DNA of 62,738 nucleotides, counting the filler, from Perkinsus olseni (Eukaryota): the NCBI GenBank assembly GCA_013115125.1. It is 3 parts of 3 records of this genome, joined end to end, with 100 filler letters (N's around TTAATTAATTAA, not from the genome) between each part and the next. Parts side by side here need not be neighbours in the genome. Positions count along the whole stretch, not along the records: positions 41,915 to 62,738 come from JABANN010000567.1; 2 more parts are not named here. One strand, given 5' to 3'. The position numbers and the translations under genes are program-made. The notes beneath the pieces are model-generated. The model saw only the letters and a program-made list of their open reading frames with translations, ran no database searches and had not been told where the DNA came from. This document shows, in pieces, positions 4,721-55,466 of the stretch. Numbering within the stretch: position 1 is the stretch's first letter; every line of letters starts with the position of its first letter.

Positions 4721-4879
4721 AGCACGCATGATGCGCGCGCCGTGACATTCGTTATCGTCTCGATCCTCTCTCGCGATAATGAATAGCGATTCTGAGGTCA
4801 CTTCAGACGTCTAGAAATTGTTCCAGAATTAATCCTCGTGATATCTGAAACCGCAAGTGTCGTTTGCCTTAGACTTAGT

Positions 4880-30703: not shown

Positions 30704-31987
30704 TCACAGCATATCGGTAATCCATATACCGAAGATACTTCCGATAAGGATACCATTGATGAGACAGAAACCCATGGCATAACCAGCGATTTCTTGCTCA
30801 TCCTTCTGGTCAGGAACCTTCTTTGGACCGAGCATCATACCAAGAGTAGCAACAACACCGTTAGTGAAGGCGAATACTGCCATCATAACGTGTTTGAACC
30901 AGTTATAGTGGAAAGGAATGACGGTGGGGAATACTCTGATGCATATGAAAAGTGGTATGAAGATGGCACGTCCAAGAGAGAGTACGACTAACCAAGTCTG
31001 GGATAAGCGAATTCCCATATTTGGGGCGAAACGGCCGACAGTATCGAAAATCTGATACATATACGTTACGAGGGGAATGAAGTTGGCGCTATCATCGGGA
31101 CCCTTGGAGCTTGTGAACTGCGTAACTTGAGAAGGGAACACGGTGAAGGTTATAGTAAGAACAGACCAAACAATAAATGCTGGCACCATAATGTCCTTAA
31201 GGATAGCGTAAACAGGACGATTACTCTGTCGGGTGGTGAAGCTCTCCTTCTTCCTGTTCTCCTCCACTTTGAGTATATCACTCATGTAGGAGTGTTTTAC
31301 CATACAGAGGCGGAACATCGGAATAACCAATATGGTCATTATCGATGTCACGGCGAAGAAGATCAAGCACCTCCACTCGGCATACCGTTGAACCCCACAA
31401 GATGTTAGAATATAGTTTATGAGTATGTAGATGGGCCAACCGATGAGACCAGCAACACCTTCACCAATCATAGCCCAGTTCATGCAGGCTTGGGAACCGA
31501 GGGCTGCCAGACCGAAAGCGGCCGATTCGATCAGAGAGTGACCGAAGCCAAGCATGAAAGTACAGACCAAGCCAAGAGCGAAACCGAGACCCGGGTTATC
31601 AACGGGGTCATCGTCACCAATGACCATGGCGACCACGGCCATGAGGATATTGAATGATGCGAGAAGGACGCATCCAATATCCATACGAGGGGCGAACGGG
31701 AACTTGTTGCCGATGAAGATGAGCAACAACTCAGCCACATTAACAGACAGACCGTAGTAGATGGAGACGTTTGAACTGAACTGATGCTCGAACTTGCCAT
31801 CCAAGTAGACGAGCTCAGTGAGGACGAAGTTCCACGGGGCCAAAGCTACAAATCCCAATACAGCAAACATGAGGAGAAGCTTCCAGTCAGGTTTCAACTC
31901 GTTGGATTTTTTCTTCTCCTCGACAAAGCTTCCCGATGCAGAGGATGCCTCGAGGTCCCTCACTTTATGTTCGCTCTCAGCAGACAT
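30704..31987 (-). CDS. Equilibrative nucleoside transporter (ENT/SLC29), copy 1, intronless
   Basis: About 11 TM helices with LGxxxLAPWN, GEGVAG, TFTVFP, FDTVGR, RAIFIPLF and FAFTNG; first ATG at 31987. Confidence 0.93.
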   Translation of the reverse strand: MSAESEHKVRDLEASSASGSFVEEKKKSNELKPDWKLLLMFAVLGFVALAPWNFVLTELVYLDGKFEHQFSSNVSIYYGLSVNVAELLLIFIGNKFPFAPRMDIGCVLLASFNILMAVVAMVIGDDDPVDNPGLGFALGLVCTFMLGFGHSLIESAAFGLAALGSQACMNWAMIGEGVAGLIGWPIYILINYILTSCGVQRYAEWRCLIFFAVTSIMTILVIPMFRLCMVKHSYMSDILKVEENRKKESFTTRQSNRPVYAILKDIMVPAFIVWSVLTITFTVFPSQVTQFTSSKGPDDSANFIPLVTYMYQIFDTVGRFAPNMGIRLSQTWLVVLSLGRAIFIPLFICIRVFPTVIPFHYNWFKHVMMAVFAFTNGVVATLGMMLGPKKVPDQKDEQEIAGYAMGFCLINGILIGSIFGIWITDML

Positions 31988-33270
31988 GAATACTGGGAAC
32001 AATCGGAGAATAAAAACCGGGTCAGGCTAGGTTTCGATAGTTCCACACAGCGAGGGACAGCGTGCTAGCCTCAACACGAATAGCTTACGAGGCTGTCTCC
32101 GTACGGCACAGGTTCCCGGGCGCTCGAACGCAATTTCTTTAATAAAGAAGTAGCTCAGCTACAGAGACTTCGGTGAGTGGCTGTAGACGAGAATATGGGC
32201 AGCGCGTCCAGGGTGACTAACTACGACAATTAGCTATGGATCCCATCCTGCACGCACGCACATGGATGTGCACAGAATCCCGTAACAGGTCCACAATGCA
32301 AGAAAGGCCTCCTATCCTGGTAAGCTTCCTCCCCGTGGCACACTCGAATCGCCCGTTAGCAGGTATAAGGACGTATGCCCATGGGTGGGAGACAATGCTT
32401 CCGCCTCATCCAACCTGAATCTTACAACAAGACTCATTTAATGACACTGAACTAAAAATTTAGTTCTTCATTCACAAGCAGTTTACGGTCAGGCGACCAG
32501 AGTCTTGTTTCGAACACAGGGTTGTTCAAAAAAAGTTCTCGACAAGAACAGTATACACAAGTTATCAACGCCTTCTTCTCAGTAGAGTCAACTGCTGTGC
32601 AATCGTTAATAAGAGACTCGGCAGCGCTGACTATCAGTAGCCACCGATCATTATAACGATATGACAGAGCAACACTACCAAGTGTGGCTGTCCCCGGACT
32701 TCACTGGAGACTTAGCCAACAACAGGCAAGCGTGACAGAGGGAACCAATAATTTTATGCAAACTTAATCATTTGGTAGTTGGTAAGGAAGAGTAGGAAAA
32801 AGGCATCTTAGTGTATAAGAAACAAGAGCAGGCAACATGGTTCACGTTGTCGAGCTTGAGCTCTCTCACATTACCGTTGTTGCGCTGTGAACAGCACTGC
32901 TGGCCGAGTTATACCAATACGGCAGTGCACCACACACCAGGATATGATACTATCCCAGGACCAAGTAGCAGCGACAACGGAGCGACGTGAGGAGCTCAAC
33001 GATACAAGCGGATACCGCCGTCGAAGATGTCGTAAACAGAGCGAGAACCGGGGCAAAACTCTGGTCCCGCGATACAGACTAAAGGGGGGAAGTGAAGAAG
33101 ACAAAGTAATGATGGCAATACACGAATCAGCGCGGGCCATCTTTAGTAATGATGATGATGTAACTAGAGAAAGTTAGCAGCATATATATAACAACGATAC
33201 TATGCTCACGACCTGGCCAGTCGACGATAGACCAGCATCTATTGATAGTAGTAGCAGCAGTAGAGCCTTA

Positions 33271-34677
33271 TTATGCGGTCAGAGGCAACATGTCAGTGAC
33301 CCATATACCGAAGATACTTCCGATAAGGATACCATCGATAAGGCAGAAACTCATGGCATAACCAGCGATTTCTTGTTCATTCCGATCTTCAGGAACCTTA
33401 GTGGGACCCATCATCATACCCAGTGTACTGGTAACACCATTGGTGAAGGCAAATATAGCCATCATAATGTGCTTGAAGTAGTTATGCTGGAAGGCTGTAT
33501 TCCAAGGGAACAACTTGATGCATATGAAGAGAGGGATGAAGATAACACCACGAGCAAGGGCCAAAGCGACCAACCACCACTGAGGTAGACGGATACCAAC
33601 ATTAGGCGCGAAACGCCCGACAGTATCAAATATCTGATACATGTAGGTAATAAGAGGAATGAATGAAGCATTGTCAGCCGCACCCTTGCCACTTGTAAAT
33701 TGAGTGACTTGGGATGGGAAAACCACAAAGGTAACAGTAAGAGCACACCAAACAACAAATGCAGGCAAGGCAATATCCATAAGGATCCTGTAGACGGGCC
33801 TCTTGGTCTGACGCTCCTTGAATCCACCATTCTTACGCTTAGCCTCCATATCGAGAACCTGCTTCATGTACGGATGTTTCATCATACCGAAGTGGAACAT
33901 AGGGATACAGAGTATAGTCAATACAGTAGTGACCAAAAAGAATATAAGGCACCTCCACTCGGCGTAGCGTTCAACACCGCATGACGTGAGAATATAGTTG
34001 ATGAGAATGTTGATAGGCCAACCGATGAGACCAGCAACACCTTCACCAATCATAGCCCAGTTCATGCAGGCTTGGGAACCGAGGGCTGCCAAACCGAAAG
34101 CAGCCGATTCGATGAAGGAGTGGCCAAAGCCAAGCATGAAGGTGCAGACCAGACCAAGCCCAAAACCAAGACCGGTATTGTCATCAGGGTCGTCATTACC
34201 GATGAACATGGCTACAATTGCCAGACAGATGTTGAATGTTGCGAGAAGGACGCATCCAATATCCATACGAGGAGCGAAGGCGAACTTGTTGCCGATGAAG
34301 ATGAGCAACAACTCAGCCACATTAACAGACAGACCGTAGCAGATGGAGACGTTTGAACTGAACTGATGCTCGAACTTGCCATCCAAGTAGACGAGCTCAG
34401 TGAGGACGAAGTTCCATGGGGCCAAGGCAATGAAGCCGAGAATCAGGAACATAAGGAGGAGCTTCCAATCCTCGAGACTTTTCTTCTCCTTAGTCTCCTC
34501 CACCTCCTTCTCCGAACCCTTGGTCGACGATAGATCTGTCATCTCCTTCTCAGAAGGACATGAGGATGATGCGGGCTCGGCCTTCATTCCTTCTTCAAGG
34601 TCAAGACTGGCCCTCTTGGATGGACCCTCGCTGCTCTCACGCATAGATAATTCCACCTCGGTTGCTGATGTCGACAT
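33271..34677 (-). CDS. Equilibrative nucleoside transporter (ENT/SLC29), copy 2, intronless
   Basis: Same ENT motifs; close tandem paralog of 30704-31987. Confidence 0.93.
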   Translation of the reverse strand: MSTSATEVELSMRESSEGPSKRASLDLEEGMKAEPASSSCPSEKEMTDLSSTKGSEKEVEETKEKKSLEDWKLLLMFLILGFIALAPWNFVLTELVYLDGKFEHQFSSNVSICYGLSVNVAELLLIFIGNKFAFAPRMDIGCVLLATFNICLAIVAMFIGNDDPDDNTGLGFGLGLVCTFMLGFGHSFIESAAFGLAALGSQACMNWAMIGEGVAGLIGWPINILINYILTSCGVERYAEWRCLIFFLVTTVLTILCIPMFHFGMMKHPYMKQVLDMEAKRKNGGFKERQTKRPVYRILMDIALPAFVVWCALTVTFVVFPSQVTQFTSGKGAADNASFIPLITYMYQIFDTVGRFAPNVGIRLPQWWLVALALARGVIFIPLFICIKLFPWNTAFQHNYFKHIMMAIFAFTNGVTSTLGMMMGPTKVPEDRNEQEIAGYAMSFCLIDGILIGSIFGIWVTDMLPLTA

Positions 34678-36354
34678 CTGCGGTGATGCCAGAGTATAAT
34701 AAAAAACGAGCGACGCTCAGAGTGAGGTGAATGGAGGCAGTAGCTGCGGGGCCTGGCTTCAGGTTGTGTCAAGGCTGTCCCATATCACAATGGATTGTCC
34801 CTCCTCACTGCTCATCACAAGTAATTGCACAAGAAGGGATTATTCTCAAATTTCAACCCTTCCTAGGCAAAGGGGATGATAAGCTCAGCGTCCAGTATCA
34901 AATGTAACCTATCGATCACTGTGGGAAGACCATCAATCCTGCCCAGTGGACTTTTGATGTGGCCGTGGCTCCGGGGATCTGCTGCTGCCCAACGACACGA
35001 CGGAGCAATCGGACAAATCTCAACAGAAGATCTCTAGCGCCATCATCCCATCTCTTTCGTCTGACTGCATAGAGCTTAACATTCAGACGGTCGGAAATAA
35101 ACGATGCTCGTCGGAAATAATCGGTAGAATACGACAGGGGTTCTAGAGGAATTCGCTTCAACAAGTAGAATTGTCGTACGAAGCCGGAACCAGTCCAGGG
35201 ACCACGGCATAGGTATCGGTAATGGATTGATACCTGCTTCGGGTGAGAGTGTCCTCGGGTCCTATGTTCACTAGCCATCAAGCAGTATGAGTCCACCGCA
35301 TTGCTATGACTGCCGGCAGTGACAATGAAGCGGCCCCGACAGATTTGAATAGCCTTTTCATAACCCAGCCGAGAAAAACAACAGCTTCAAGAACGTGTAT
35401 CTGACCCATACGATTCCTCCGCACGATCGGAGTTCATTCTTGTCCTCCAGACGGGTATCCCAGATCATCTACAAAACCCCCACTGCCCCATCAAATGCTG
35501 CTTTCCCCCTCAATGGCACCCCGAAACTGCACATAAGTGTCTCGAGGGAGCACCTATTGTCGTGGAGTGCCCAACCAAACAAATAAGAACCCCTCGGCGT
35601 CAATCATCTCCCGATTGCAGAGTATGGCTGTTTGACAAGCATAGGAGGTGTGTCCGAAGAAGTGCTCTATAGCATATTGCTAAAACGTATTTAAAACGAC
35701 GAAGCGTATGTTGTAACATATGCTACTACTCCTAAAGTGCCGCCGTAAACTCAAGGACTAGAAACCCAACACTGCCAAAGGGATAAATCCATTCCGATAA
35801 TCAGCACAACTATGTCATCATCATCGTTTTTATAATAATACTAATCATTTCCGGACGGGAAGCATCATGGTGCGGTAATGACGTAGACCAGCGCGAGCAG
35901 CAGCAGCTGCAGCAGCAGCATCCGTATTGATTACTATCACGGATACGGTAGGTGTCGCCGTGAGTAGATTGAAGCGTGAGTAGATTGAAGGCGTGCACTA
36001 TGAGAAGGGTAAAATCAGATCTTCAACGATCTTGTCTTCAACGCCTGCTGCTACGAGGCATGACACAACAACAGGGCTGCTCCTAGTGGCCATCATCAAT
36101 GCTGGTGTTGTAGTAGCTGCTACTACTACTGCGGCTGCTATTGGCCCGTGATGGTGCACATGATGATGTGCAGGCAGCATCTTCTATTACAGGTCATATC
36201 GAGGCAGGACTCGATACGAAAGTTGTTGGAAATACATAGATGATACGAATGCGGGATATAATTCAATTAACGACGACGACCTCTTGTAGACCGTAAAGAC
36301 GACATCACCCAAACTAGCGGTGAAAGAGGGCGAACCACCAGGAAGGGTAGTAGA

Positions 36355-40991: not shown

Positions 40992-41040
<49 letters not shown>

Positions 41041-41744
41041 CCATCATCATCATCACCAACACGTTCACAAACACCCCCACCTACAAGAAGCAGCGCCCTA
41101 GGCAAGGAAGTTGGCAATGGCAGCAGTGATAGCGGAAATACTCGAGACAACACAACAGGGTCAGCAGTAGCGGCCCCAGTTGTAGCGACCAGCAAAGGTA
41201 CCATACCGATACATTTCATGGAGGCCATGCAGATAATGGCGGGTAAGTAGTGGTATCGCTGCTGCTGCTGGTCGGTTGGACGTACTGGCATGATTCCAGG
41301 TAATAAGCCCATATCGCCAGATCTTGATGTGAAGACCCTGGAGGAATGGGAGGCTACCGCTGGATCTAGACCACTACCGTTATGTCAAGTAACGAGCGCC
41401 AATGGTGGTTTGGGATGGTGCACCACTCTTGTTGTTGTTATTATCATTAGGAGCATCCTGCACTGAGGCAGCCTAGATACCGTCCTATGGGTATGAAGAA
41501 TCCCTCCCAGACTAGAGTATGCTATCTTAACGCTATGATACAGGTAATACTACTACTGCTACTACTAGGAGGAGGCTGATGTTGTTGTTACAGGTACTAT
41601 TACCAATAACAGGGCTTATGACCTATCTATCATTGGCAATGAGTACGATGCGTGAGAAGGAGAAGGATAAATATCCATGGACAAGGGCTATAGCGTCAGC
41701 ATGTCGGCCATTCTTCCAGCCCCCTCCACCTCCACCTGCTCCTG
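38395..41744 (+). CDS. Ubiquitin-specific protease (C19, USP10/Ubp3-like architecture) with long Q/A/Y-rich N-terminus; 3'-truncated by gap, start uncertain
   Basis: Exon 41451-41543 reads RYRPMGMKNPSQTRVCYLNAMIQ and splices to VLLPITG (USP Cys box); large low-complexity exon at 39006 to about 40510; no His box before the gap. Confidence 0.7.

Positions 41745-41814
<70 letters not shown>
41745..41814 (+). repeat. (GTA)n microsatellite running into gap
   Basis: Pure GTA/TAG run ending at the Ns. Confidence 0.95.
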
Positions 41815-41914
41815 NNNNNNNNNNNNNNNNNNNNNNNNNNNNNNNNNNNNNNNNNNNNTTAATTAATTAANNNNNNNNNNNNNNNNNNNNNNNNNNNNNN
41901 NNNNNNNNNNNNNN
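41815..41914. other. Assembly gap with artificial TTAATTAATTAA spacer
   Basis: N run with spacer at 41859-41870. Confidence 0.95.
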
Positions 41915-41987
41915 ACTTTCTATATTTCTACTTGTGTTGAGATGACCGGGACGCCACAACACTCTACGAACGATGAGGGCAACAACA
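41915..41987 (+). repeat. 5' LTR (3' portion only)
   Basis: 73 bp identical to the end of the 3' LTR, ending GGGCAACAACA. Confidence 0.9.
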
Positions 41988-44900
41988 TGGTACTGGAACC
42001 TGATACGGAGAGTGCTGAGGCGCCTGGTACATCTGGTACTACTAGGACCGCCGAGGAAATGCAGGCTCTGGAAACGGCTAAGCAGATGCTGGTTACATGG
42101 TTTCAATCACCTATGGTTGGTGATGATGTTCTTCAGAGGTCCTGCGATGCACTCCAGGGCATTCCGGGTATCAATGATGAGCTGCTGGATGAGGCCGTTA
42201 ATGCTATCCTGTGGGTTAGTGATCCCCATGAGGGCAAGGTTGTTGAAATGCTGCAAGTGTTCGCGCAATGGTGCCGAATAGCGGATAGACGTGCGCGAGG
42301 CCCTTTACGACGACGCTTACTTGGTGACTTTTATAGTCCGTTTTGTCAGAATAAGGAAGTGCTGAAGAACTATGGTGATACTCTCCAGCGACGTCTTGAT
42401 CAAGTAGGTTTTGAAGTGGTTGGTTGTAATGTTGACCCAGTTGTTGTACATTGTCCGGTTAAGAAGAGACCTGTGGTTTTGAATGAGCCAATGCATGAGG
42501 TTGATATGAATCCGGTTTTGATCAAGAAGGAAGCTTTACCCAATGGTGACCGAAATCAGTCTATAAACGGATCAGGTGCTCTGTCGGATATCCGTATCGG
42601 TGATGATGGGCTGGATTCTCTTGGTCTGAGTGAGCCAGATGTTTTACTTGTGAACACTATCACTCGTAAAGATATTACTGAGGGCCGTCGTTTAGCACAA
42701 GGCATTACCCCGATAGTTTATTCTGGGACTGGAGATGCTCTACCGTATGTGGTTTTTAAACGACGATTTGATTTGCTATGTCGACAGAATGGATTGATAG
42801 GTGATCCAGTGTCGGTCTACCATCTTCTTCTTCGTTGTCTATCTCCTGCCTTGATTGTTGCTCTCAATCCATCTGTTGTTGGTCTTGGTATTGCCAAAGA
42901 TTGGATTCGAGAGATAGGTCGGTTATTCTCCTCGTTATCATTGTCCTGTTCTGGTGTGAGTGATGATGTGGCAAGGCTGGGAGCTAGTCAGTCCTTTGCT
43001 AATATAACTCAGAGTCAGAACGAGACTGTTTCTGAATTTATCGTTCGATTTTCGAATGCATCATCCGATCTCACTGCCTATTTGGGGGCTGAGGTAGATG
43101 ATGAAAAGTTGCGTACTACCTTTTTGAAGGCATTACTACCGGTGTGGAGGTCGACTGCAATGGATATTCTTTCTCGTGGAGGAGACCTACAGACGGTGGA
43201 ACGTGAACTTTCTCAACGTGAACGATTGGAGAAGGCGGTTAATGGTTCTACCCGTGGTTCTTCTCCCTCGACTTCGACTACTCGTGTTCGATTGAATGCT
43301 ATAAGTGGCGAGGTCTCTACTGGGGAGGAAGGCGGTGGTGCTGGTCAGTCTGGACAACAACGGCGTCATCGACGACAGTCTAAATTGGTGAAAAAGCCCT
43401 GTTTCCAATGGAGGGATACTGGTACTTGTACATTCGGTGACAAATGTCGTTTTTTACATGAACAGTCTAATATTGCTAATGTTGCGCCTACGATGGATTC
43501 AACCTCGTCTCCTTGTGCTACAGCTGTTGATTCAGTTGCAACCGGGACAATTGAGGGGTCTTCATGTGACGTATTGGCTTTAGCGGCTGGGAATGAGCAT
43601 TGTCTACCGTTTGTGAGTCTAGATATTCCGGAATATGGGTCGGTTCCTGCCCTGTTGGATTCTGGTGCGTTCTGGAATTATGCACCTCTTCGGTTACTAG
43701 AAGATTTAGGCTTCTCAGAGAAAGATCTGACTAGCTGTGAGGAGGTTGTTACCTTAGCAAATGGTTCTAAGAGTCATGTTTGTGGGACTATTAGTATTAA
43801 TAATCTGGTCTTTCGGGTATTGAATTCCAATGTTGATTATTTGATCATTGGAGTGAAGTCTATGTATGATCTTGGTATCAGTTTGTCATTTGGTGATGGT
43901 CACTCTGCCGGTCTCTTTGCTATAAGCATGGGACAAGCACACACTATCGCATCACTATGTGCGTGTGGTTTGACGGGTTATGATGGTCGAGATCAGCTGT
44001 GTACGGTATGGTCGCCTAATTTATTTGAGAGTACTTTGACTGGGGAGGTCTCGCCCGTTTGCGATTGGTTACCGGTTGTCGGTTCCGAAGGCTATTGTTG
44101 GAGGGCAAGGGCTCTAGAACCTGATGAAGAACGAGATACTGCAACCCAACGGTATGCCATCGAGGTGATGGTCCCCTATGATAAAGAAAAGGTCGCAAGG
44201 TATCCTTCAAGAGGAGATTATGGCAGGCGCATGGTTGAGAAGATGGAGGAAGCTGAGCAGGTGAAATTCCTTGCTGAAGTTCAGAAGTATGAACACAAGC
44301 TCTGGTGGAAGAAGATTGGCCCAGTTGAGACCAACCCGCCGTCACCTGGTACTCTGGTGGTTTTCCCCGTCAGGGCTAAGAAAGTTGGGTCATCAACCCC
44401 CATACGACCAGTTTTGGATGCCCGATTGAGGAACTTGTTCAGTCCGGTTAGTTCCTATGATGGTCCTACAATTGGGTCTATTCTTTTGGATTTGAGGCTA
44501 CGTTATAAACGGCACTCCAGGGTTTTGGTGAGAGATGCGAGTGCCGCATTTTATCGTATCCGTCTGGAAAAAGATTCAGTGGTAGAGTTGGTGGCTAATG
44601 GTGTGCTCTATAAAAGTTGTCGCCTTTGTTTCGGTCTACGAGCGGGCCCATGTTGTTTGTGGGCTGGTCTTACCTTTATTTTGGATTTAGCGCTGTCAGA
44701 GCTCTCGGATAAGGTTAAGGAATATTTATGGAATTGTTCTATCTACCTTTACTTAGATGATTTAACATTGGTTATCAATGAAGGTGGCGATTCCCCTTAT
44801 TTGGTTGATGGTAGATCTGTTGCTGATATATTACTAGAGAAGATAACAGAAGTTGCTGGTCGCTATGGTTTTGACTTTCCAAGAGAAAAGGGGTGTGACA

Positions 44901-47152
44901 GCGCCGACCAGAAGGATTTCAAGCATCTCGGTATACGATGGGTATTTGATAAGGAGAATTCTGGTGATCTTGGTTCCGTCTGCCTTAAGCATAAGGTTGG
45001 TCAGTACCGTGATGAGAACAATAAGATTAAGACCAAGTGGACGAAAAGGTCATTATACTCGTTGTCTGCGGTTGTGAGCAGTGGTTGTGATCCTCTACTC
45101 ATACATGGTTCAGAAAGGTTAGCCGGTGATGTCTTGAAGATAATCGGAGGTGCTCTGGCGAAAGGTCAGAAGTGGGATGACGAGTTTGTGATCAAGGAAG
45201 ATGATCCGGCTTATCATGTACTGTCCTTATGTCTTGAGACTATTGAGAGATACCAGGGCACAGAGTGCTATCATCCAGTACATGAACTAGTACCTGGTGA
45301 TGATGAGATTCATGTTTATGTTGATGCGAGCTCCTTGGCATGGTCGTGGGTTATGATGACTTATGATGCCAAGAGTGAATCTGAGTCGATGCTACAATCA
45401 TCGGGTGGTATCTTCAAGGGTGCAGCACGTAATTTTCATATAAACAGAAAAGAATTAATAGCTTTATCGAAAGCTACCTTGGCTATCCACTCGGCGCTAT
45501 CTGGCAAACGCAGGTATCCTTTGGTCTCTCGAGTGGTGATTTTCAGTGACTCTCAAACTGTTAATCGTTGGGTGACAACCAATAAATGTTCTGTACGAAG
45601 TCTTGAACGAGTGGTGGTTAGGCGGCTCACCGAAGCCATCCGCGAGATTATCGGTGATTTACAGTCTACTGGCGTGTCTGTGGTTGTACGGAAGGTCGAC
45701 TCTGACTCTAACAAAGCGGATGCATTATCAAGGCTACCGTTATTGTGGGGTTATGACCGGTTGGATTTTGTTGATGGTGGTGATGTTCCTATCTTCCCTA
45801 GCGCTAATCCTGTGCATACTGTGCAGGGGGGTGATGAGGCGCTCGGTCAGGAGGAGTCGGTGTTGCTGACAGGTGTACTTACTCGTGACTCGTTAAAACA
45901 ACTTCAACGCCAGTCTCCATTTTGGAAACCGGTTGTAGAGTTTGTTGAATCGGGGAGAAAAGGGCATCCTGTAGCCGCTGTTCTCAAAGCCGCCGAATGT
46001 GTGCGTTTAACACATGATGGTGTTCTCATGGGCTTGCGTTATGCCCATGGGTCTGTTCTGCAAGAACCTCGAGAAGTTTATATCGTTCCTGGGGATACTA
46101 CCGATGGTAGGAACTTATCGTTCCGTATTTGTTTAAGTTTCCATAATGGGAACCACTACAACCCTCGATACCTGCGGTATGAGATATCTCGCAAGTTTGA
46201 TATTAGTGGTTTATCGAAGTTATGCTCATTGGTTTATCGCCAATGTAAACGATGTCAACAAGCTGCGGTCACTAGGTTCTATAAAGGTTTTTTGGGACAT
46301 ACTGATATCCCATCATCTTCTATATGGGACAGTGTATGCCTCGACATTGCGGGTCCCTTCCCCAAAGATGTTGATACTCACTACACGGTGGCATTGGTAT
46401 GTGTGGATATGTATTCGCACTATGCTATTATTGTTGGTCTACATAACCAACGATCTCAAACGGTTTGTGGTGCACTCAACCGTCTTATCCAGGAGTATGG
46501 AGTTATGCGGGAACTCAGGAGCGATGGAGGCCCCTGTTTTGTCTCTGCTTACTTCAAGCGATGGTTGGTTAACAAGGGAGTTTCTCATAGGGTTGTGAAC
46601 AAGTATTCACCTTTTGAGAATGGTCTAGCCGAAAAGACCATTAGTGGCCTCAAGTCAAGTATCAGACTTTTTCCAGAAGTTCTTCGCAGTCGCTATCATG
46701 ATTCGTCTCATTGGTATGAGGTGGCATCTAAAGCGGTGAGAAGGCTCAATGACCGGCCGTATTTGAATACGACTCCATTTGCTCTGTGGTTCGGTCGTGA
46801 ACGACGCTCTGAGGAAGAAGCTCGGTTGTCTCTGAAGCCGAAGGATACTACAGTGGAGGCCTTGAAGAAGCAAAGGGAGGAAATGAAGGGTGATTTTGAC
46901 CGTGAACGATCTCTTCGGACTCCTGGCAGACAGTTTTCTCCGAGGTCGTTGAAGATTTCTCCCGGTCAGAAAGTTAAGGTGTTTCGGCCAAGCTCTCTCG
47001 CTGGCGTTGGCCATAGTAGAGGCCTATTGAAGAAACCGGTCTATACAGTTGTGTCACAACGAGGTGTTGATGTTGAGCTACTAGAAGATGGCAAGTCTGC
47101 AGGCAATGAAGTTACTGAGCATATTCGCAATATAAGACCATACTATGCTTAG
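41942..47152 (+). CDS. Gag-Pol polyprotein (Gag with CCCH finger, protease, RT, RNase H, integrase)
   Basis: CFQWRDTGTCTFGDKCRFLH; LLDSGA; RDASAAFYRI, LCFGLRAGP, YLDD; HVYVDAS...KELIAL...FSDS...NKADALSR; H-x3-H...CKRC, CLDIAGPF, RSDGG, ENGLAEK. Alternative start ATG at 41987. Confidence 0.93.
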   Translation: MTGTPQHSTNDEGNNMVLEPDTESAEAPGTSGTTRTAEEMQALETAKQMLVTWFQSPMVGDDVLQRSCDALQGIPGINDELLDEAVNAILWVSDPHEGKVVEMLQVFAQWCRIADRRARGPLRRRLLGDFYSPFCQNKEVLKNYGDTLQRRLDQVGFEVVGCNVDPVVVHCPVKKRPVVLNEPMHEVDMNPVLIKKEALPNGDRNQSINGSGALSDIRIGDDGLDSLGLSEPDVLLVNTITRKDITEGRRLAQGITPIVYSGTGDALPYVVFKRRFDLLCRQNGLIGDPVSVYHLLLRCLSPALIVALNPSVVGLGIAKDWIREIGRLFSSLSLSCSGVSDDVARLGASQSFANITQSQNETVSEFIVRFSNASSDLTAYLGAEVDDEKLRTTFLKALLPVWRSTAMDILSRGGDLQTVERELSQRERLEKAVNGSTRGSSPSTSTTRVRLNAISGEVSTGEEGGGAGQSGQQRRHRRQSKLVKKPCFQWRDTGTCTFGDKCRFLHEQSNIANVAPTMDSTSSPCATAVDSVATGTIEGSSCDVLALAAGNEHCLPFVSLDIPEYGSVPALLDSGAFWNYAPLRLLEDLGFSEKDLTSCEEVVTLANGSKSHVCGTISINNLVFRVLNSNVDYLIIGVKSMYDLGISLSFGDGHSAGLFAISMGQAHTIASLCACGLTGYDGRDQLCTVWSPNLFESTLTGEVSPVCDWLPVVGSEGYCWRARALEPDEERDTATQRYAIEVMVPYDKEKVARYPSRGDYGRRMVEKMEEAEQVKFLAEVQKYEHKLWWKKIGPVETNPPSPGTLVVFPVRAKKVGSSTPIRPVLDARLRNLFSPVSSYDGPTIGSILLDLRLRYKRHSRVLVRDASAAFYRIRLEKDSVVELVANGVLYKSCRLCFGLRAGPCCLWAGLTFILDLALSELSDKVKEYLWNCSIYLYLDDLTLVINEGGDSPYLVDGRSVADILLEKITEVAGRYGFDFPREKGCDSADQKDFKHLGIRWVFDKENSGDLGSVCLKHKVGQYRDENNKIKTKWTKRSLYSLSAVVSSGCDPLLIHGSERLAGDVLKIIGGALAKGQKWDDEFVIKEDDPAYHVLSLCLETIERYQGTECYHPVHELVPGDDEIHVYVDASSLAWSWVMMTYDAKSESESMLQSSGGIFKGAARNFHINRKELIALSKATLAIHSALSGKRRYPLVSRVVIFSDSQTVNRWVTTNKCSVRSLERVVVRRLTEAIREIIGDLQSTGVSVVVRKVDSDSNKADALSRLPLLWGYDRLDFVDGGDVPIFPSANPVHTVQGGDEALGQEESVLLTGVLTRDSLKQLQRQSPFWKPVVEFVESGRKGHPVAAVLKAAECVRLTHDGVLMGLRYAHGSVLQEPREVYIVPGDTTDGRNLSFRICLSFHNGNHYNPRYLRYEISRKFDISGLSKLCSLVYRQCKRCQQAAVTRFYKGFLGHTDIPSSSIWDSVCLDIAGPFPKDVDTHYTVALVCVDMYSHYAIIVGLHNQRSQTVCGALNRLIQEYGVMRELRSDGGPCFVSAYFKRWLVNKGVSHRVVNKYSPFENGLAEKTISGLKSSIRLFPEVLRSRYHDSSHWYEVASKAVRRLNDRPYLNTTPFALWFGRERRSEEEARLSLKPKDTTVEALKKQREEMKGDFDRERSLRTPGRQFSPRSLKISPGQKVKVFRPSSLAGVGHSRGLLKKPVYTVVSQRGVDVELLEDGKSAGNEVTEHIRNIRPYYA
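41988..42002 (+). promoter_or_regulatory. Primer binding site
   Basis: TGGTACTGGAACCTG directly after the LTR terminal CA; TGG complements tRNA CCA. Confidence 0.7.
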
Positions 47153-47174
47153 TTTGTGATGTTGATACACGGTC

Positions 47175-47184
47175 AGGGGGGTGA
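47175..47184 (+). promoter_or_regulatory. Polypurine tract
   Basis: AGGGGGGTGA immediately before the 3' LTR TG. Confidence 0.75.
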
Positions 47185-47389
47185 TGTTGATGCCCAATTG
47201 TTGTGACCGTGACGTTGTGCTAAGACTGTCCCCCTTTCGTAGCTTATTGTTGGCACAAAGCTTGTCTCCCCGCAGCTGTCGGAGTAGACTATGTTTGTAT
47301 TGTATGTTCTATAGTTACTTTCTATATTTCTACTTGTGTTGAGATGACCGGGACGCCACAACACTCTACGAACGATGAGGGCAACAACA
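47185..47389 (+). repeat. 3' LTR, 205 bp
   Basis: TGTTGATGCCC...GGGCAACAACA terminal inverted repeat (10/11 match). Confidence 0.9.
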
Positions 47390-47920
47390 ATATTATGTAT
47401 TGCCTCTGCTAAGGATCTGCTCAGGTTTGGCGGGGACGAGGTGTTGTGGGTGCAGATTGCCTACTACCGGTGCTCCTCTACTCGGTTGGTTGGTCCTGAG
47501 TATGTCCCGAGCACTCCCCAAGGGTTTTGTCAAGTCCCAAGAAAGGTCAAACCCTCGCAGTCCTTCTATAGCTGATGAGCCCAATACCGATCGTCTGGGC
47601 AAGCGAGATGCTCAGGCCGTGCTGTGAAGTAGAGAGAAGAGTGAAGTGCATTGTTACACTACTTCTGTCCCAGGGTAGTGGTATTGGCTTATTCTGGCAC
47701 AAGACATCCGCTTGTTGAGTTTCCCCTAAGTGATATCCAAGTCAGTACCGCGACACAAGATACGCTGTGAGGTGCGCACCTCGAAGATGCGATAGTCGTA
47801 TTGATCTTCAAGATGTGCTAAATGGGTCTATTAGTGGACGGCAAACAGTCAGCATGTTTGAGTGTTGGCTGCTGTAGTGTGATATGTGTGGTATCGTACT
47901 TTCGTAAGGGGTGTAGTGTT

Positions 47921-48187
47921 CACTCGGAATTGCAGGGGCTCGGAATCAGTACCCGTTTCTTGGCGGAAAATTTTTCCTCGGAATCTGATCCCATGACCCG
48001 CACTTGAATGTAGACCTCGGATTTCCAGCTCGTGAAAGCACAACTCGGAATCGGAAAAGTTTCGCTGAGCGCTCGGACCGAGCACTCAACTCGGAAATTC
48101 ACTTGAATGCATTATTCCATCCCGAGTTCGGAAGGGATGCCCTTCCGACTACTCGGACTCGGAAAAAGGGGCACTTGAATAGGCCCC
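47921..48187 (+). repeat. Cluster of CTCGGA(A) and CACTTGAAT motifs, probable subterminal region of a DNA transposon end
   Basis: About ten CTCGGA copies and three CACTTGAAT copies in ~270 bp, abutting CAGGGGTG at 48187. Confidence 0.5.
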
Positions 48188-49164
48188 AGGGGTGACCAGT
48201 TATTTTCAACACCATCATTCTTAACACACGGAGAATTTCATCACAAGGGTGGTTCGTGCCAACACTTAATTTCAACACTTGCCATTGCAGAGAGTTTTTC
48301 CTAACACTTCTTATTTCAAAACATCCTAGTGTTGAAGAAGCCCTACCAGAAACAGTTTTTTCCAACACTGCAGTGGTCTTTTTAAACACTTAACTTTCTC
48401 CTGATACTACGCTCCTTTGCGAGGCCGCGAACTTCGCAGATACTCTGTGCTGGAGAGTAACAGGCCCCGCAGAAAAACCGAGTAGAAAAACCGACCGAGC
48501 CGCCTGAGAGCTGCAAATTAGTGCAAAACGCAAGACCGAATAGGCCGGAAACACGGAGTTCACGATACCTAGAGCAGGGAACACACATCAAAAAGAGAGA
48601 AGGTCCGACATTCGATTAATTCTTGCACCGTTGAGTGGCTTTCAATGGAAGGCTTCCGGAGTATACGCCCTGTGGAGGGTAGCATCTGAGTGACCAAGGT
48701 AACCATGCTATTACTCGATGAACTACTTGCCGTGGTTTTCAGTCCATCCACGCCGGTGAGGTGGACCTGGAGAGCTTTGAACTTCTTGAAACGGGTTGGA
48801 CGTCCCCCATTATCATGCCGTTTCCTTCCCTGTACGATTTTGGCGGAGGTATCTGGGGAAAGGATATCACAGGAAGATGTCCTAGTCAACGAATCGTAAG
48901 AGCAGACTTAAGTACCTTGGTGGTTCGAAGTAGACGAGTGTCGAGCTGTTTCCTTGGGAGGGACTTCGGCAGAGCTTCGACTACTCCTAGTAGTCAAAGA
49001 TCCAGAGACCGGAGAAGCAATCTCAGAGACCATGGCCGGAGAAGTCCTCTCCTCATTGTCATTTTCTGCTCTGCTAACGAGGCAAACATGATAACATTGC
49101 CCAGACTGGCAATACACGCCTCGATGGTTGAACCTCCGTCACGCTTCTAAGATGCGTTGGGGAG

Positions 49165-49224
49165 TGAGAAGCGATGAGAGCTCCAACCTTCGTCTGAGAA
49201 GCGATGAGAGCTCCAACCTTCGTC
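49165..49224 (+). repeat. Perfect 30-bp tandem duplication
   Basis: TGAGAAGCGATGAGAGCTCCAACCTTCGTC x2. Confidence 0.9.
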
Positions 49225-49997
49225 AGCGTGCGTCCTTCCCCCCTGGAAACATCGGTCCTCAGGGTGGGAGGGAGGGTTGAAACTTTTCCTAGTATAACAC
49301 AACCCAGTTGGGCCTCCGCCCCTCGTACGCGTGCTCTTTTCTTGTGTACCACGTGCTGGCCGTTTGAAAGCGCGCGCCCATCAACAGCGCGTATGATAAC
49401 ACAAGCTTCCGTTGTGTTTCTCATACATAGGACATGTACACCCAATCGCGGGGATTCTTATGGCTCCTGCTTTGCCGAGCACCCACAGCTGCCCCGTCTA
49501 GAGATCGCGACTGCCGAGATGAGCTCGCCACATAATACCGTAGGTGCGGTGTAGCTGTGTATACAATATGTGGATCACATTCCTGAGCATTAGCCAGGGA
49601 AGCTGGCTGGGGTTCGAGTCGCGTAGAGCAAGTTTTGCTATCATCGGTCTATATCATCGGGTTTCCAGGAACTACACGAGTGGCTGGTATTACAAGCAGG
49701 CGTAGAGCGACTCGAATCTATGCGTTCGTCAGCAAATCGACGAGAATAGATGGCAGAAGTGTCACTCATTTCGAGGGGGGGGGGGCGCAAAGTAAAGCTG
49801 GGCGAGCCGCAGTAACCAATCATTGAGACTCTGAAGAATGGAGCTTGGGCAAGAAGCCAGGCGCCACTAACGAGTCGTTAGTAACGATATCAACGCAACA
49901 CAGACTAGGGCGAGAAACTTACTGAACGCCAACCCAGGTTCGATGCGAGAACGGCAAGCGTAATATAAGCGAAAGGCAAGGAGCGGAAGGGTTCGGG

Positions 49998-50019
49998 GAG
50001 CGGACTCCGCTCAGCGGAG
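49998..50019. repeat. 22-bp double fold-back scar (8-mer GAGCGGAG)
   Basis: GAGCGGA + CTCCGCTC + AGCGGAG, exact. Confidence 0.8.
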
Positions 50020-50438
50020 ACAGACATGAAGATGCTCCAATAACAACTCTAATAAGCTAAGTGCCGTTCACGAATATATATGTAAGTGTTGCAAAAACCA
50101 GCAAAACAACGGTCTTTCGCAACACTCAAAAAGTGTTAAAAATGATGATGGTGAAAAAAGACTGCCGAACAAAAGAGTTGAAAATGACAGTGCAAGTGGT
50201 GCAAAAACAGGTGTTTAGAAAAACTCCGGCCAGGAAAAACGATTTACTCGGGTATTCGCCGAGGGCAGAAGAAGTACTTCAATCAGAAGGTCAATCGACT
50301 GCCATGGGTACCTCGCTCTCCTCCGTGGGTCACAGTTTGTTTGCTAGCGCCAGCTTTATTAATGATATCCTCACAGGCATTTGGGACCACGCTGCCACTA
50401 CTCAGGCAAGCCGTCCAAAATTCGTATCTTCGTTTCAA

Positions 50439-51281
50439 CTAACTTGACATTGAGAAGCAGCACTTAGCGTTGAAGCTGTTGGCCATAAATGCAGCGTCAT
50501 CGAGCATTTGCTGGCGCCCCTCTGGAACTGGCTGGGCCATGTTCTCGAGCTCCTGCAATTCACCTTCCATAGAATCGCCCTTTCGTTGACTGCTTTCTTT
50601 ACTTATACTTTTAATCGCAGCAATCGATACCTTCAAGGCATTCTGGCAGCCTGTGAGGACGCTACCCGAGGCGGCCTCGACACAGCGGCACAGGATACTA
50701 TATAATTGTACCAGCCAGAAGATGAATCTAACTAATAGTTCATGGACTTTCATATCTCCTACTTAGTATCTCTCAATGGTAGACAGACCTCAGTAGCCCG
50801 TATCATATATTCCAGGTGCCTCACAGCAAACTGTGGAGGTGACCGACTGCATAGAAATAGACTTATACGATGAATGAGAGCAGAGCACGCCAGTAGGCCG
50901 AGGTGAAGGTTATCCCTCAGCAGAGGGCGCTCCACCGCTCTGAGGTCGGGCTCAAGTGAAATGCCATTATGACTACCGTTCATATATGAACATCAATAAG
51001 CGAACAGGCCTGGTCCATTAAATCGTCACACTCTTTGGCAAGCTTATCGTTAGTGAGGAGGATAGGCTTCACCGTGAGTTCCTCCCACTCGGTGATGAGC
51101 CGTTTCAGTTCAGTATCCTGAGGCTGTACAACACCTCAGGGGAACATGCTACTATGACATCGGCTGCTCTAGTAATCGGTTCCTCAGGGGTCATCCCCTT
51201 CGGTGGTTTCTGTGTGACTCTCTTACGTCTCACTGCCTCCAACAATATCGATTCTTCGTCTACGGATATGACCTTAGACAT
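50439..51281 (-). pseudogene. Possible disrupted gene of unknown function
   Basis: Helical-looking peptide pieces (MSKVISVDEESILLEAV..., ...LLRDNLHLGLLACSAL..., KVHELLVRFIFWLVQL...) in changing frames without clear introns. Confidence 0.3.
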
Positions 51282-51309
51282 TTACGGCGGGCGTTTCAGG
51301 GCTTTTATC

Positions 51310-51696
51310 AATAGAGTATAGCGATAAAATCAGAGTATATTATACGAATCGATAAGCGCCTTCCAAAGGTGGTCAAGTCATTCTGATAGTCTCGGGCACA
51401 GACGAAAAATCGAAAATTCAAATTCGAATAAAGGATCGGTTACAGTGGGAGGGGTTAGTTGTCCCTCACGGCATCATGAATGGAATGTGACATGTGGAGA
51501 AGAGTCGGAGGACTAACATCCGACATTTAATGCGTGGTAACGGATCTTTTCCATCCCGACAGAATTTGATTTGCATGTCCGATTTTTCGTCTGTGCTCGA
51601 GAGTACCAAAATGACTTGACCACCATCGGAAAGCCCTTAGCGAGTTGTATATGATACTCATTATGAGTAACTCATATTTCATCCCTATACTCTATT
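51310..51696. mobile_element. Fold-back / MITE-like element with long imperfect inverted arms
   Basis: 51310 to about 51442 aligns to the reverse complement of about 51537-51696 (e.g. GGTGGTCAAGTCATT/AATGACTTGACCACC, GCACAGACGAAAAATCG/CGATTTTTCGTCTGTGC); no TSD identified. Confidence 0.65.
51655..51676. repeat. 22-bp double fold-back scar (8-mer TACTCATA)
   Basis: TACTCAT + TATGAGTA + ACTCATA, exact; the 14 extra nt are absent from the partner inverted arm. Confidence 0.85.
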
Positions 51697-51785
51697 CCGT
51701 GGACTTATTGAAAGAAGTCGGTCTTTTTGAAACACCCTTACGATATATAAAAAACGTAGAGTAAGCTAGTTAGTCTGCCCGGCAG

Positions 51786-51834
51786 ACTCTATCGATGCTA
51801 GACGGCAGACTCTGCCGTCTAGCATCGATAGAGT
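51786..51834. repeat. Perfect 24-bp-arm palindrome with 1-nt centre
   Basis: ACTCTATCGATGCTAGACGGCAGA-C-TCTGCCGTCTAGCATCGATAGAGT. Confidence 0.95.
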
Positions 51835-53407
51835 TATGTCTCAGAGTATCTCATTGGTGCTTTGGTATTCACGGTACTAACACAACTACATAATGGACAT
51901 CAGCACATCCTCGTGTGAAGGTAATTCTGTAACGTCATAGGTCGACCCTTGGTAAGGGAGCGATCAGGCGCCTGTCGGAGACCCGGTGCCGTCTCCATGC
52001 GCAGAAGTTGCTGCAGACTAGCTACACTCTCGTCCACTACACGCACTGCTCGAAGTGTCTAAGGATAGCCATAATGGTATCACTTAACATTCTCACGTCA
52101 GGGTTACGCGCCGCTGCCTCAACCAAATCGGCGCACTCCTTCTTCATTGACTTGTAGTAGCCCAATATCTATACCACATTAATAGCCACAGTTTCGGACT
52201 CACAGAATTAGGATACCCCTGATCCGTGCTGGCCGTCTCTCGAGGCATTATCGTCTTGAGCGTGTCCAATACAGGCAGCCTGTACGGCCGAGGATCCCAT
52301 CTCTCCCGCTCAACTGCTCTAATAATTAGAGTCAATTAGAGTCTAATTGCTTCTCAGGGCTGATAAACAATGCCCCAATTACGCTTATAGACTCACCGGC
52401 ATCTTCTTCATCTCATTTGCGAACATCTTTCGACGCCAAACAGACTTTAGCATGCCCCTCTGCTCGGACGCTGCTGGAGGCTCCACTGCCATCTGCTATG
52501 TACTCCGCGGTATAGCTCCCATCCCCTACCGGTGGGGCCTTCAGATCAGGGCAGGAACTTCGATGTAAGACGACCTTCTTACCCTTCTTGTGGAGGTGCC
52601 GAACTCTTCTACCTCTGTTCTGCTCGAGCCTTCTAGATTCTTCCAAGGCAATCTGGGAGAGTAAAACACGTTAGCTGTTCTTATCGTCGAATGAAAAGGA
52701 TATGATTCGAGAGAATATTGGACTGGCCTACGAGCCCCAGAGCATCGAGTCGCTACACTCCCGAGAGGCTCACCTTCATAGATGCCAATTGAGCTGTTAT
52801 ATCCTCATCCTGTGCTGTGACCCCGGATAAGATACTCAACCATTAAAAGGCACCAGTACCCTTGTGAAGCCTCTCTGGTAGACTACTGGACATATAAACT
52901 AACGAGTGCTAATATTATCAACTCAAATCTACGGCATAACGAGGATAACATGTTAGGCATCATTATTCTGATGAGTGCGTGCTTTTATCAGACTAGAAGT
53001 CAACTGCCGACGAAGGTCGGAGCCCGTCATGTTACCACTCTAAAGAGATACTACAATACAGATACAACCATCTCTTCACTTGCTCCTCACTCGGTAGACA
53101 CCAGGCCGTGGGCGTCTAGAACCGCCGAGAACTCGGCCTCGACCTCGGGAGTAGGACAGAGCGAGTGAACGATGGTGCGTACGTCAGCGGAGAGACCCGG
53201 AGACAACGATGACTAAAACACGATGTATACCCAGACTGAGAAGTATCGTGGAACCGGTTTACCCCAAGTGCCGGGCGACCGACACGAAACTGTTAAAAGA
53301 AAGGTCATACCGCTATTACAACACTACACTATTGATTAACAGAAATGGCTTGGTTTAGACCCATCATGCGGGAGGGCTTTAAAATGAAAAGTTATGAAAA
53401 TATTTGA

Positions 53408-53748: not shown

Positions 53749-54825
53749 TCACTGTTTAGCTGCAGAGAAACCTACTTTGTTGCTCTGCAGTTGAAAGTTG
53801 AAGTACTTACCCATGAATGCGCTCGCTCCCAAGACGCATTCATCATCGGCAACAAAAGCTAAGCGTAGTATACAAGTTCCCCCATTGTACTTGCTGACCA
53901 GACTTGTTGCGGGAATTTCAAGGGGAATTGCCTCTCCCTTCAACCCTTTTATGCTGAAGGTCATAGATGGCAGGTACTTGGCATCGTCGCAGGATATAAG
54001 TAGTTTCACTCTCTCTTGTTGGATCGAGACCTTCTTCTGCCCCGCTATTTGTAAGAAGTCGATAAGCTGCTTCTTGAACTTCTCGTTGATGTAGATGTGA
54101 CTGGCACCGGTGTCGAATGCAGCAGACGCTGTCAAGGGTATGCGGTACTTTGGATCGCTCCCAATAGCCAAGCCCATCAGTTGCACAAACTGCTCATCCT
54201 TGTTAACAATTTGGACGTACTTGAGGGGAGCAACGTACTTTCCAGGATCCTCACCACCGAGGATGAGCTCGCCGGTCGAGTCCTCCCCTCCTTTGAAGTA
54301 CAGCGAGAAGGAGTTGCTGCTTATAACTTTCTTGGACACCAGTTGCTCGACGATAGATGTATACGGTTGAGTTGCCGGCGTTGATGCTCTCAAGCCGAGC
54401 GACGCCCATATTCTTTCCGAGTCGCGGTTGAAGCCGGCTACCATGCCGAAGTTAGCAGATGGGACAATCGCAGAACCAAACTCCAGCTTGCCAGAGTGCG
54501 GGAAGAGCCAAACCTTAGAGCCGTCACCAAAAGTAAAAGCCTTGGTTGGGCCTTCCGTACAAGGGGGGGCGCACTCATAACAACCGAAGACGAGGTTAGC
54601 GCAGACGCCGAATTCCTCTTCGTACCAGTGCTTCCATACAACAAATAGATAGGTTGCTCCCGTATCTACTAGAGCATAGATATCTTGCCCGTCGGCCTTG
54701 AAATGAGCTAGGGGTAGGGGATAGATATCATTCACGGCGGTCTTCTTGAAGGACATATCCATTCTTACTAGCTTATCGCCTGTGACGAGCCCAATCATAA
54801 CCGGCATCAACAGTTTCCACATCAT
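53749..54825 (-). CDS. Secreted pepsin-like aspartyl protease (family A1), intronless
   Basis: Signal peptide; two catalytic motifs LVDTGAT and AFDTGAS; FSLYF, GELILGG and C-terminal VLGASAF...NKVGFS. Confidence 0.92.
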   Translation of the reverse strand: MMWKLLMPVMIGLVTGDKLVRMDMSFKKTAVNDIYPLPLAHFKADGQDIYALVDTGATYLFVVWKHWYEEEFGVCANLVFGCYECAPPCTEGPTKAFTFGDGSKVWLFPHSGKLEFGSAIVPSANFGMVAGFNRDSERIWASLGLRASTPATQPYTSIVEQLVSKKVISSNSFSLYFKGGEDSTGELILGGEDPGKYVAPLKYVQIVNKDEQFVQLMGLAIGSDPKYRIPLTASAAFDTGASHIYINEKFKKQLIDFLQIAGQKKVSIQQERVKLLISCDDAKYLPSMTFSIKGLKGEAIPLEIPATSLVSKYNGGTCILRLAFVADDECVLGASAFMGKYFNFQLQSNKVGFSAAKQ

Positions 54826-55466
54826 CGATGGCAGAATAAATCGAAGATAAGAAATCTGTTAGAAACATGAATGACTTACGAAGCATCCCCGAAAAGCGTC
54901 GTGAACATCTTCGCTCCTGTTGTACGATTTCTCGTCACCATTTCTTGAGAGTAAGCCAGGATTTACTATCAGTAACTCTAGCGTTACTAACTGTTGCGAA
55001 AATGATGACGATCCCGGCCTATAGTGCTAATGTTCTAAATTATATAGCTGATGTGCAACTCGACATTTGTAGCCGAAGTGAGGCAAAGAAAGAATAATCT
55101 CAGATGCTTGGCCTGCTTTTTTACGTTAGCAAATCGATCGCGTCACACCTGTGCAGGCCAACTCGCACGTGTGAAATTGCGCCACTAGTCACAGACATGA
55201 GACGATATCATAGCCCTTCCTAGGGGCGATGAAAACCAAAGACAATGGGGAGGGGTTGGTACATAGAACATAAAGACCATGCCCATCGAGCGCAGTCGAT
55301 ACTGTGCCCACATAGGTAAACTAGGGCATATCCGACGGGCGCACGAGGAGACAGAAAAATAAACAATTGGCGTGAAACCGTGCCGTGTTTCTGCTCACAG
55401 GGGTCGGCCATGATCAACGCAATAGCACAAGATGGAGCCAGAGGGAACTCTTGTCTTAGTTCATCA

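Follow-up and report, generated by a model that had tools for sequence, protein, structure and literature searches.

A Perkinsus olseni LTR retrotransposon from a large lineage outside the superfamilies tested, probably an early branch on the BEL/Pao side

What kind of long terminal repeat (LTR) retrotransposon occupies positions 41,915 to 47,389 of a 62,738-nucleotide stretch of Perkinsus olseni DNA (assembly GCA_013115125.1; the whole stretch is hereafter the window), and does it belong to BEL/Pao, a superfamily described as confined to animals (PMC8742986; PMC554778, in the part of that paper available)? A preliminary description of the sequence had reported a protist element with BEL/Pao-type reverse transcriptase (RT) and RNase H (RH) and a Gypsy-type integrase (IN), and had proposed a deep-branching or chimeric lineage or an old transfer from an animal host. 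Our analysis indicates that it is probably an autonomous P. olseni LTR retrotransposon belonging to a large, old lineage, here designated W, outside the described LTR superfamilies tested, which most probably split off early on the BEL/Pao side. The lineage is apparently unnamed.

The element has the features of an Ortervirales-type LTR retrotransposon, namely TG...CA LTRs (the 5' copy partly assembled), a primer-binding site, a polypurine tract and gag-pol coding capacity for protease (PR), RT, RH and a DDE integrase (Table 1). Its single open reading frame (ORF) is uninterrupted, as first reported, and encodes Gag, PR, RT, RH and IN in that order in one frame, as judged from Pfam matches and motifs; the motifs quoted earlier for RT, RH and IN all occur in it and all catalytic residues are present. 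Pfam detected neither a Gag family in the 1736-aa protein nor a protease in the element's own sequence, and the conserved Gag region at aa 313-431 may have a capsid role, given its position. Pfam and a motif check found no CCHC knuckle in the element's Gag. A predicted structure model (pLDDT, the predicted local distance difference test, 90.6) matches RT-RH folds, with only generic RT-RH matches in fold searches, and the best PDB sequence match of the integrase is foamy-virus integrase (E 8.6e-9).

The position of the element was assessed with an RT-RH tree of 61 rows (19 W, 8 BEL, 8 from elements bearing DUF7047, 10 from a Pao-like clade of Perkinsus, 8 Gypsy, 4 'other' and 4 tyrosine-recombinase (YR) rows), hand-picked from larger sets for spread and completeness, with L146 and L163 left out as fragments. 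The BEL rows all derive from one search around one arachnid element and form an arthropod-centred set; the Gypsy rows are five from Perkinsus and three from IMG/VR, and the tree has no retrovirus, caulimovirus, Copia or Kuafu rows. W is monophyletic in all three RT trees, with support in the Shimodaira-Hasegawa-like approximate likelihood-ratio test (SH-aLRT) of 98 under LG+G4, 100 under a mixture model and 99/96 in an RT core tree rooted with six long interspersed nuclear elements (LINEs). W, DUF7047, Pao-like and BEL rows together form one group (99, 98 and 97/90, respectively), and in the LINE-rooted tree W is sister to the other three (97/90). The approximately unbiased (AU) test on RT-RH rejects W with Gypsy (p-AU 0.0012), W with BEL alone (0.0055), the element inside BEL (1e-47, against the single arthropod-centred BEL set) and the element inside Gypsy (1e-5), and is compatible with W plus DUF7047 (0.5) and W plus BEL plus Pao-like (0.51). 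As far as these reference rows reach, a place within BEL or within Gypsy is excluded.

Profile scores and motifs lean the same way. The best-domain median scores of a W-only profile are 128 bits for DUF7047, 82 for Pao-like, 68 for BEL, 35 for Gypsy, 9 for YR and 4 for LINE sequences. Conversely, the element's own protein scores 53 (Pao-like), 34 (DUF7047), 20 (BEL) and 16 (Gypsy) bits for RT, 60 (DUF7047), 55 (Pao-like), 23 (Gypsy) and 16 (BEL) for RH, and 101 (Pao-like), 98 (DUF7047), 64 (Gypsy) and 23 (BEL) for IN, the BEL profile being a narrow one in each case. A characteristic aspartate in the thumb is present in 15/19 W and 8/8 BEL rows and in none of the 8 Gypsy rows, and the WD motif in 17/19 W and 8/8 BEL rows. 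These thumb motifs side with BEL, the RNase H motif HxNxxE sides with DUF7047, and PF05380 matches 4/20 W RT-RH rows at E<=1. The deep-branching lineage first suggested is borne out as a supported clade of its own, and the proposed BEL/Pao character of RT-RH holds as a leaning of motifs, trees and profiles and fails as membership, nesting in BEL being rejected.

Several results limit the case for a BEL-side position. On RT-RH the AU test does not reject W with Gypsy and 'other', or W with YR (both 0.156). On the RT core, with 175 columns, all four alternatives tried stand unrejected, W with Gypsy included (0.61). Branches are long, reference rows are narrow, and the mixture-model result comes from a quick tree only; the structure search was neutral, its best matches being caulimoviral RTs at 13-17% identity, and the integrase tree is poorly resolved, with W in six parts. 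An alternative is that W is a separate superfamily-level LTR lineage without special ties to BEL/Pao, in which case the shared motifs would be ancestral and the grouping a product of long-branch attraction. A position of W outside the BEL group is unrejected at the AU values just given, HxNxxE is not BEL-like, and the narrow BEL profile ranks below Gypsy for the element's RH and IN. However, the three best trees, one of them mixture-model and one LINE-rooted, put W on the BEL side, profile scores and the thumb motifs (D and WD) agree with them, and we regard a separate origin as unlikely. The BEL-side position of W is favoured, not proven.

The integrase bears on whether the element is a chimera in which a BEL-side RT-RH recombined with a Gypsy integrase. 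In an IN tree of 67 rows, from which L142, L125 and, at an earlier stage, short fragments were excluded, two W subclades fall inside the BEL/Pao-like group and the element's own subclade outside it. The AU test does not reject this subclade with Gypsy (0.65), and the third IN motif is of the P..NG..E type, both of which recombination could accommodate; W monophyly is not rejected in this tree either (0.11). We nevertheless consider a chimera improbable: the subclade with BEL is equally unrejected (0.79), the IN scores favour the Pao-like and DUF7047 profiles over Gypsy, the same two groups lead for RT and RH, and DD(35)E is the usual state beyond animal BEL. The D-E spacing is 35 in the element, 30-37 in 26/26 W rows, 32-42 in Pao-like rows and 45 in 9/10 BEL rows (the tenth is misaligned), and DD(35)E is common to nearly all non-BEL groups tested. 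The simplest reading is that the integrase is the element's own and of ancestral type, not borrowed, and exchange within W is possible; W would then have kept an ancestral D-E spacing that was lengthened later in animal BEL/Pao. Separate RT and IN phylogenies had been proposed at the outset and were run here on narrower references: the RT trees recovered the W clade, and the IN tree was compatible with Gypsy and with BEL affinity alike. What survives of the Gypsy-type integrase is its motif and spacing, the profile preference lying elsewhere, and the suggestion of a chimeric lineage is not upheld.

The host of the element is Perkinsus olseni. Its nearest records come from P. olseni, with 99% identity over RT-RH and 97% over 1219 columns; a P. 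chesapeaki relative is 48% identical over 1725 columns, and relatives also occur in P. marinus. Within the genome, 53 of 84 scored candidates match in RT-RH, with 22-53% identity apart from the element itself; W sequences of this one genome (20-53% identity) are much more diverse than the BEL set. In three full-length relatives the two LTRs are 98.4-99.5% identical; these relatives also have TGG primer sites and show target-site duplications of 4 bp (L037, L039) or 5 bp (L047). Among 36 long W-type proteins checked for their Gags, 6 have CCCH fingers, 20 CCHC knuckles and 10 neither, and the occurrence of CCCH fingers in W and in some Pao-like Gags suggests repeated swaps.

Outside the genome, a profile of 23 genome relatives was searched against 1.84 billion representative proteins and returned Perkinsus proteins, many proteins from metagenome contigs of 4-19 kb and, after these, the group with DUF7047 and a single BEL/Pao protein from an animal. 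The records of 21 W-type proteins were consulted: the three with an organism name are all from Perkinsus and 18 carry none; all named W proteins come from three Perkinsus species. Named DUF7047 matches are from the sponge Sycon ciliatum (14 among the 120 matches listed), and this group also occurs in Perkinsus. In the ESM Atlas top clusters Euglenozoa were commonest, with the phylum known for three members; a DUF7047 protein returned the same clusters, and the result is a lead only. Viral contigs contained no W relative when searched with an alignment of the environmental W subclade, and no relative when searched with a single Gypsy query. A metagenome scan gave three loci of 2.4-5 kb without usable host flank.

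These distributions bear on an old horizontal transfer from an animal, such as a mollusc host, after which the lineage would have radiated in Perkinsus. Molluscs are hosts of Perkinsus, the neighbouring DUF7047 group is shared with a sponge, and animal hosts are conceivable for the 18 W proteins without an organism name. Against this stand the exclusively Perkinsus origin of the named proteins, a diversity within one genome far beyond that of the BEL set, and the rejection, on RT-RH and with the one arthropod-centred BEL set, of nesting in animal BEL. The transfer from an animal suggested earlier is thus unsupported where animal BEL/Pao is the source; an old transfer would have to come from some animal lineage not sampled here, and we hold such a transfer to be quite improbable.

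Metazoan contamination or an assembly artefact was also considered. The window is a concatenation of three unrelated contigs, numbered consecutively and of falling length (20888, 20826 and 20824 nt; the next in the series has 20820), and the element's contig, G000:C2865, begins at 41915, inside the 5' LTR. The DNA to the left of 41915 belongs to a different contig (C2864), attached through an N-TTAATTAATTAA-N linker, and therefore is not an established flank of the element; we rejected it as such. The element nonetheless has a P. olseni record at 97% identity, the genome contains dozens of its relatives, and pieces of it are present in four public runs, one of which may be the assembly source. 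Logan contigs of run X1, possibly that source, cover most of the ORF with no differing letters, indels or joints. The contig also carries an aspartic protease gene that we take to be of Perkinsus type. Contamination, named at the outset as a finding that would overturn the protist assignment, is largely refuted, and the chance of it or of an artefact is negligible.

The element had been called probably young because its LTR overlap is identical over 73 bp. The identity is confirmed (73/73 bases), but it spans no more than the final third of the LTR, which is 205 bp long. The neighbouring repeat has 41 genome matches, of which 18 measure 69-73 nt, 7 of these 18 beginning at contig base 1; the 73-nt identity probably reflects the overlap that the assembler leaves where a repeat has collapsed and therefore gives no age, and we rejected it for dating the copy. 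Recent activity is nevertheless probable, given the open frame and the near-identical LTR pairs of the relatives.

The mechanism envisaged is ordinary retrotransposition. Following standard Ortervirales biology, the LTR would drive a full-length RNA, whose translation, starting at an ATG within the LTR, would give one polyprotein that its own protease cleaves. Gag would package the RNA through its CCCH finger instead of a CCHC knuckle and, by analogy with Ortervirales, form particles; a host tRNA-Val would prime minus-strand DNA, the G-rich tract would prime the plus strand, and the DD(35)E integrase would insert the copy with a 4-5 bp duplication, as seen in the three relatives. The primer assignment comes from comparison of the site with the 3' ends of host tRNA-Val genes predicted with ARAGORN. 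At one locus, L067 (G000:C2820:14800-19200), 13 tRNA genes (Pro, Val, Leu, Thr) lie in tandem. The ATG lies within the last 46 nt of the LTR, and an ATG within the LTR occurs in 3/5 W-type elements checked, the present one counted. Directly before it (41915-41944) lies a pyrimidine-rich tract followed by AG that resembles a trans-splice acceptor, and trans-splicing may occur at this AG. A spliced-leader motif matched at 7 of 211 loci, the element's LTR not among them; the W-lineage element L047 has it in both LTRs (L047:903-912 and 6973-6982). No joints or indels that would indicate splicing inside pol were found on the element in 4/4 runs, a weak test as the runs may be DNA, none of them being recorded as RNA.

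The limits of the 205-bp LTR were set by two solo copies, L002 (100% identical) and L003 (92%); in their flanks, L003 duplicates 4/5 bases and L002 none. The insertion site of the present copy is the tail of a different LTR element; this tail and its LTR reach a summed depth above 10,000 in run X1 and have a poly-A loose end at 47702. The empty site is present on C102 (G000:C102:479-845) and in contigs of all four runs examined, and the element's own 5' flank is missing. An Rfam search of 41000-53400 gave no matches. Elsewhere in the window are host genes and a fragmented ordinary Ty3/Gypsy element that served as a control. A 91-nt inverted repeat (51333-51423 and 51569-51659, 82% complementary, 145 nt between the arms) is possibly a small DNA transposon.

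Table 1. Positions of the retrotransposon's parts, its insertion target and other features of the window
Feature	Position	Strand	Evidence or remark
3' end of 5' LTR, truncated by contig start	41915..41987	+	73/73 match to 47317-47389
Single gag-pol ORF, 1736 aa, no internal stop	41942..47152	+	translation
Primer-binding site, 13 nt directly behind 5' LTR	41988..42000	+	complementary to host tRNA-Val 3' end plus CCA
Gag capsid-like region, aa 313-431	42878..43234	+	iterative hidden Markov model search: conserved in W relatives, weakly in Perkinsus Pao-like Gags
One CCCH zinc finger, C-x8-C-x5-C-x3-H, nucleocapsid position	43400..43459	+	PF00642, 24.2 bits vs cut-off 20.5
Aspartic protease, LLDSG at aa 571	43589..43897	+	motif; Asp_protease_2 matches in relatives
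RT core, YLDD at aa 937	44303..44956	+	RVT_1 E 4.6e-5, below cut-off
Thumb and link region, BEL-like TKR..D..WD	44957..45295	+	motif alignment
RNase H; DAS, HINRKE, SDS, ADALSR	45296..45736	+	RT_RNaseH E 3.8e-5, below cut-off
Integrase: HHCC finger, DD(35)E core, C-terminal tail	46115..47149	+	rve E 7e-11, Integrase_H2C2 E 0.0055
Polypurine tract AGGGGGG	47175..47181	+	kept in 53%-identical relative on C449
Complete 3' LTR, 205 bp, TGTTG...CAACA	47185..47389	+	bounded by solo copies; start at 47182 possible
Insertion target: a different LTR element of high copy number, its 3' end with the 314-bp LTR (47442-47755)	47390..47755	+	41 genome matches
Host gene, PGAP1-like hydrolase	4796-7579		
Host gene, nucleoside transporter with similar neighbour	30704-34716		
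Host gene, pepsin-type protease	53749-54858		
Fragmented ordinary Ty3/Gypsy element	56597-62454		CCHC Gag, RVT_1 E 9e-24, RT_RNaseH E 1e-36

The genome holds further retroelements of relevance. The Perkinsus Pao-like clade is PF05380-positive, with 44 matches among 52 scored in the P. olseni genome. Loci L115-L134 and L046 (for example on G000:C16, C167 and C3320) score above the Pao peptidase cut-off and group with animal BEL (SH-aLRT 99), and this clade is a stronger candidate than the element for true protist relatives of BEL/Pao. In two Pao-like members the primer site begins with something other than TGG. Loci L143, L144, L145 and L147 (G000:C405, C250, C401 and C2993) form a divergent RT-RH-IN group that lies beside Gypsy on RT-RH and at the base of the LTR-type RTs in the LINE-rooted tree. 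Loci L160-L164 (G000:C116, C3013, C312 and C255) are retroelements of the tyrosine-recombinase kind, in which gag, RT-RH and YR frames are present. No Copia match was found in the P. olseni genome, but the controls gave none either.

One alveolate genome thus harbours at least three lineages that fall on the BEL side in RT trees (W, Pao-like and DUF7047), and a pre-animal origin of BEL/Pao is therefore directly testable by sequence; if the kinship with BEL/Pao is true, the roots of that group reach back to single-celled eukaryotes. A bolder reading, to which we give somewhat less than an even chance, is that W is an undescribed lineage of family rank that radiated in Perkinsus and in the hosts represented in metagenomes, and that it forms, with the Pao-like clade and DUF7047 elements, the stem of Belpaoviridae. 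BEL/Pao would then be a derived offshoot, in animals, of an older group spread across protists, DD(45+)E and the triple Cys-His box late acquisitions, and CCHC-to-CCCH swaps in Gag a repeated event. The findings also point to one more overlooked LTR lineage in addition to Kuafu, Odin and Loki. Its elements score below the cut-offs of the Pfam RT models, their annotation is that of hypothetical proteins, and they have therefore probably been missed in protist repeat annotation.

A literature search by titles and the starts of abstracts found no description of these Perkinsus elements, of DUF7047 elements or of a CCCH Gag, with Repbase, GyDB, Dfam and subscription papers, which may already file such families, lying outside it. 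The available parts of PMC3266345, PMC3942190, PMC12451622 and bioRxiv 10.64898/2026.09.17.752431 hold nothing on W, Pao-like or DUF7047 elements. PMC3118150, as far as available, calls the origin of BEL/Pao unresolved and does not mention protists there, and the mollusc clades Sparrow and Surcouf fall inside BEL/Pao (PMC6238403, part available).

Among known systems, Ty1/Copia was rejected, the integrase lying downstream of RT (PR-RT-RH-IN). A DIRS or other tyrosine-recombinase element was rejected as well: an rve integrase and an LLDSG protease are present and PF00589 has no match, and HINRKEL, first read as DIRS-like, has the HINxxE pattern common to the DUF7047 group. With Ty3/Gypsy the element shares domain order, DD(35)E and the P..NG..E integrase motif, but it lacks the YYR, TDH and EKE motifs, its RT_RNaseH match is at E 4e-5 compared with 1e-36 for the Gypsy element of the window, and the grouping is rejected on RT-RH. 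Kuafuorterviruses/Troyka (PMC11673190, in the part available) likewise represent a neglected LTR lineage, 5-6 kb long with the same domain order, and provide a precedent for an overlooked superfamily; they differ in having IADD, VADD or LADD at the RT site, where the element has YLDD, and in being reported from animals. The supplement of that paper, searched by motif terms, gave no match, although gapped alignments may hide motifs.

DUF7047 (PF23088) elements are the best match to the W-only profile and have HxNxxE, WD, DD(35)E and a similar integrase in common with the element, but they form a separate clade (100% support) with a CCHC Gag, and the element has no PF23088 match. The Perkinsus Pao-like clade has the same host, provides the best or second-best profile for the element's RT, RH and IN, mostly has DD(35)E and includes some CCCH Gags; it differs in joining animal BEL (SH-aLRT 99) without W and in its TIP(R/K)xE and DPLG motifs. 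BEL/Pao elements have a triple Cys-His box (Tas excepted) and DD(45-53)E and are recorded only from animals, according to the available part of PMC554778, and Belpaoviridae have metazoan hosts and tRNA-Arg or tRNA-Gly primers (PMC8742986), whereas the element has one CCCH finger, DD(35)E, a tRNA-Val primer and a protist host, and HINRKE in RNase H where BEL/Pao has TIPRLE. The BEL Pfam markers Peptidase_A17 (PF05380), DUF1759 (PF03564), DUF5641 (PF18701) and DUF1758 have no match in the element's protein at E<=1, in contrast to the control protein P0105, which matches Peptidase_A17, DUF1759 and DUF5641 at E<=2e-34, and RT-RH likeness reaches 20-25% at best. The element resembles BEL/Pao in PR-RT-RH-IN order, single gag-pol ORF, LTR length, use of a tRNA primer, polypurine tract and thumb TKR..D..WD pattern, and BEL/Pao is its nearest named superfamily in the RT trees.

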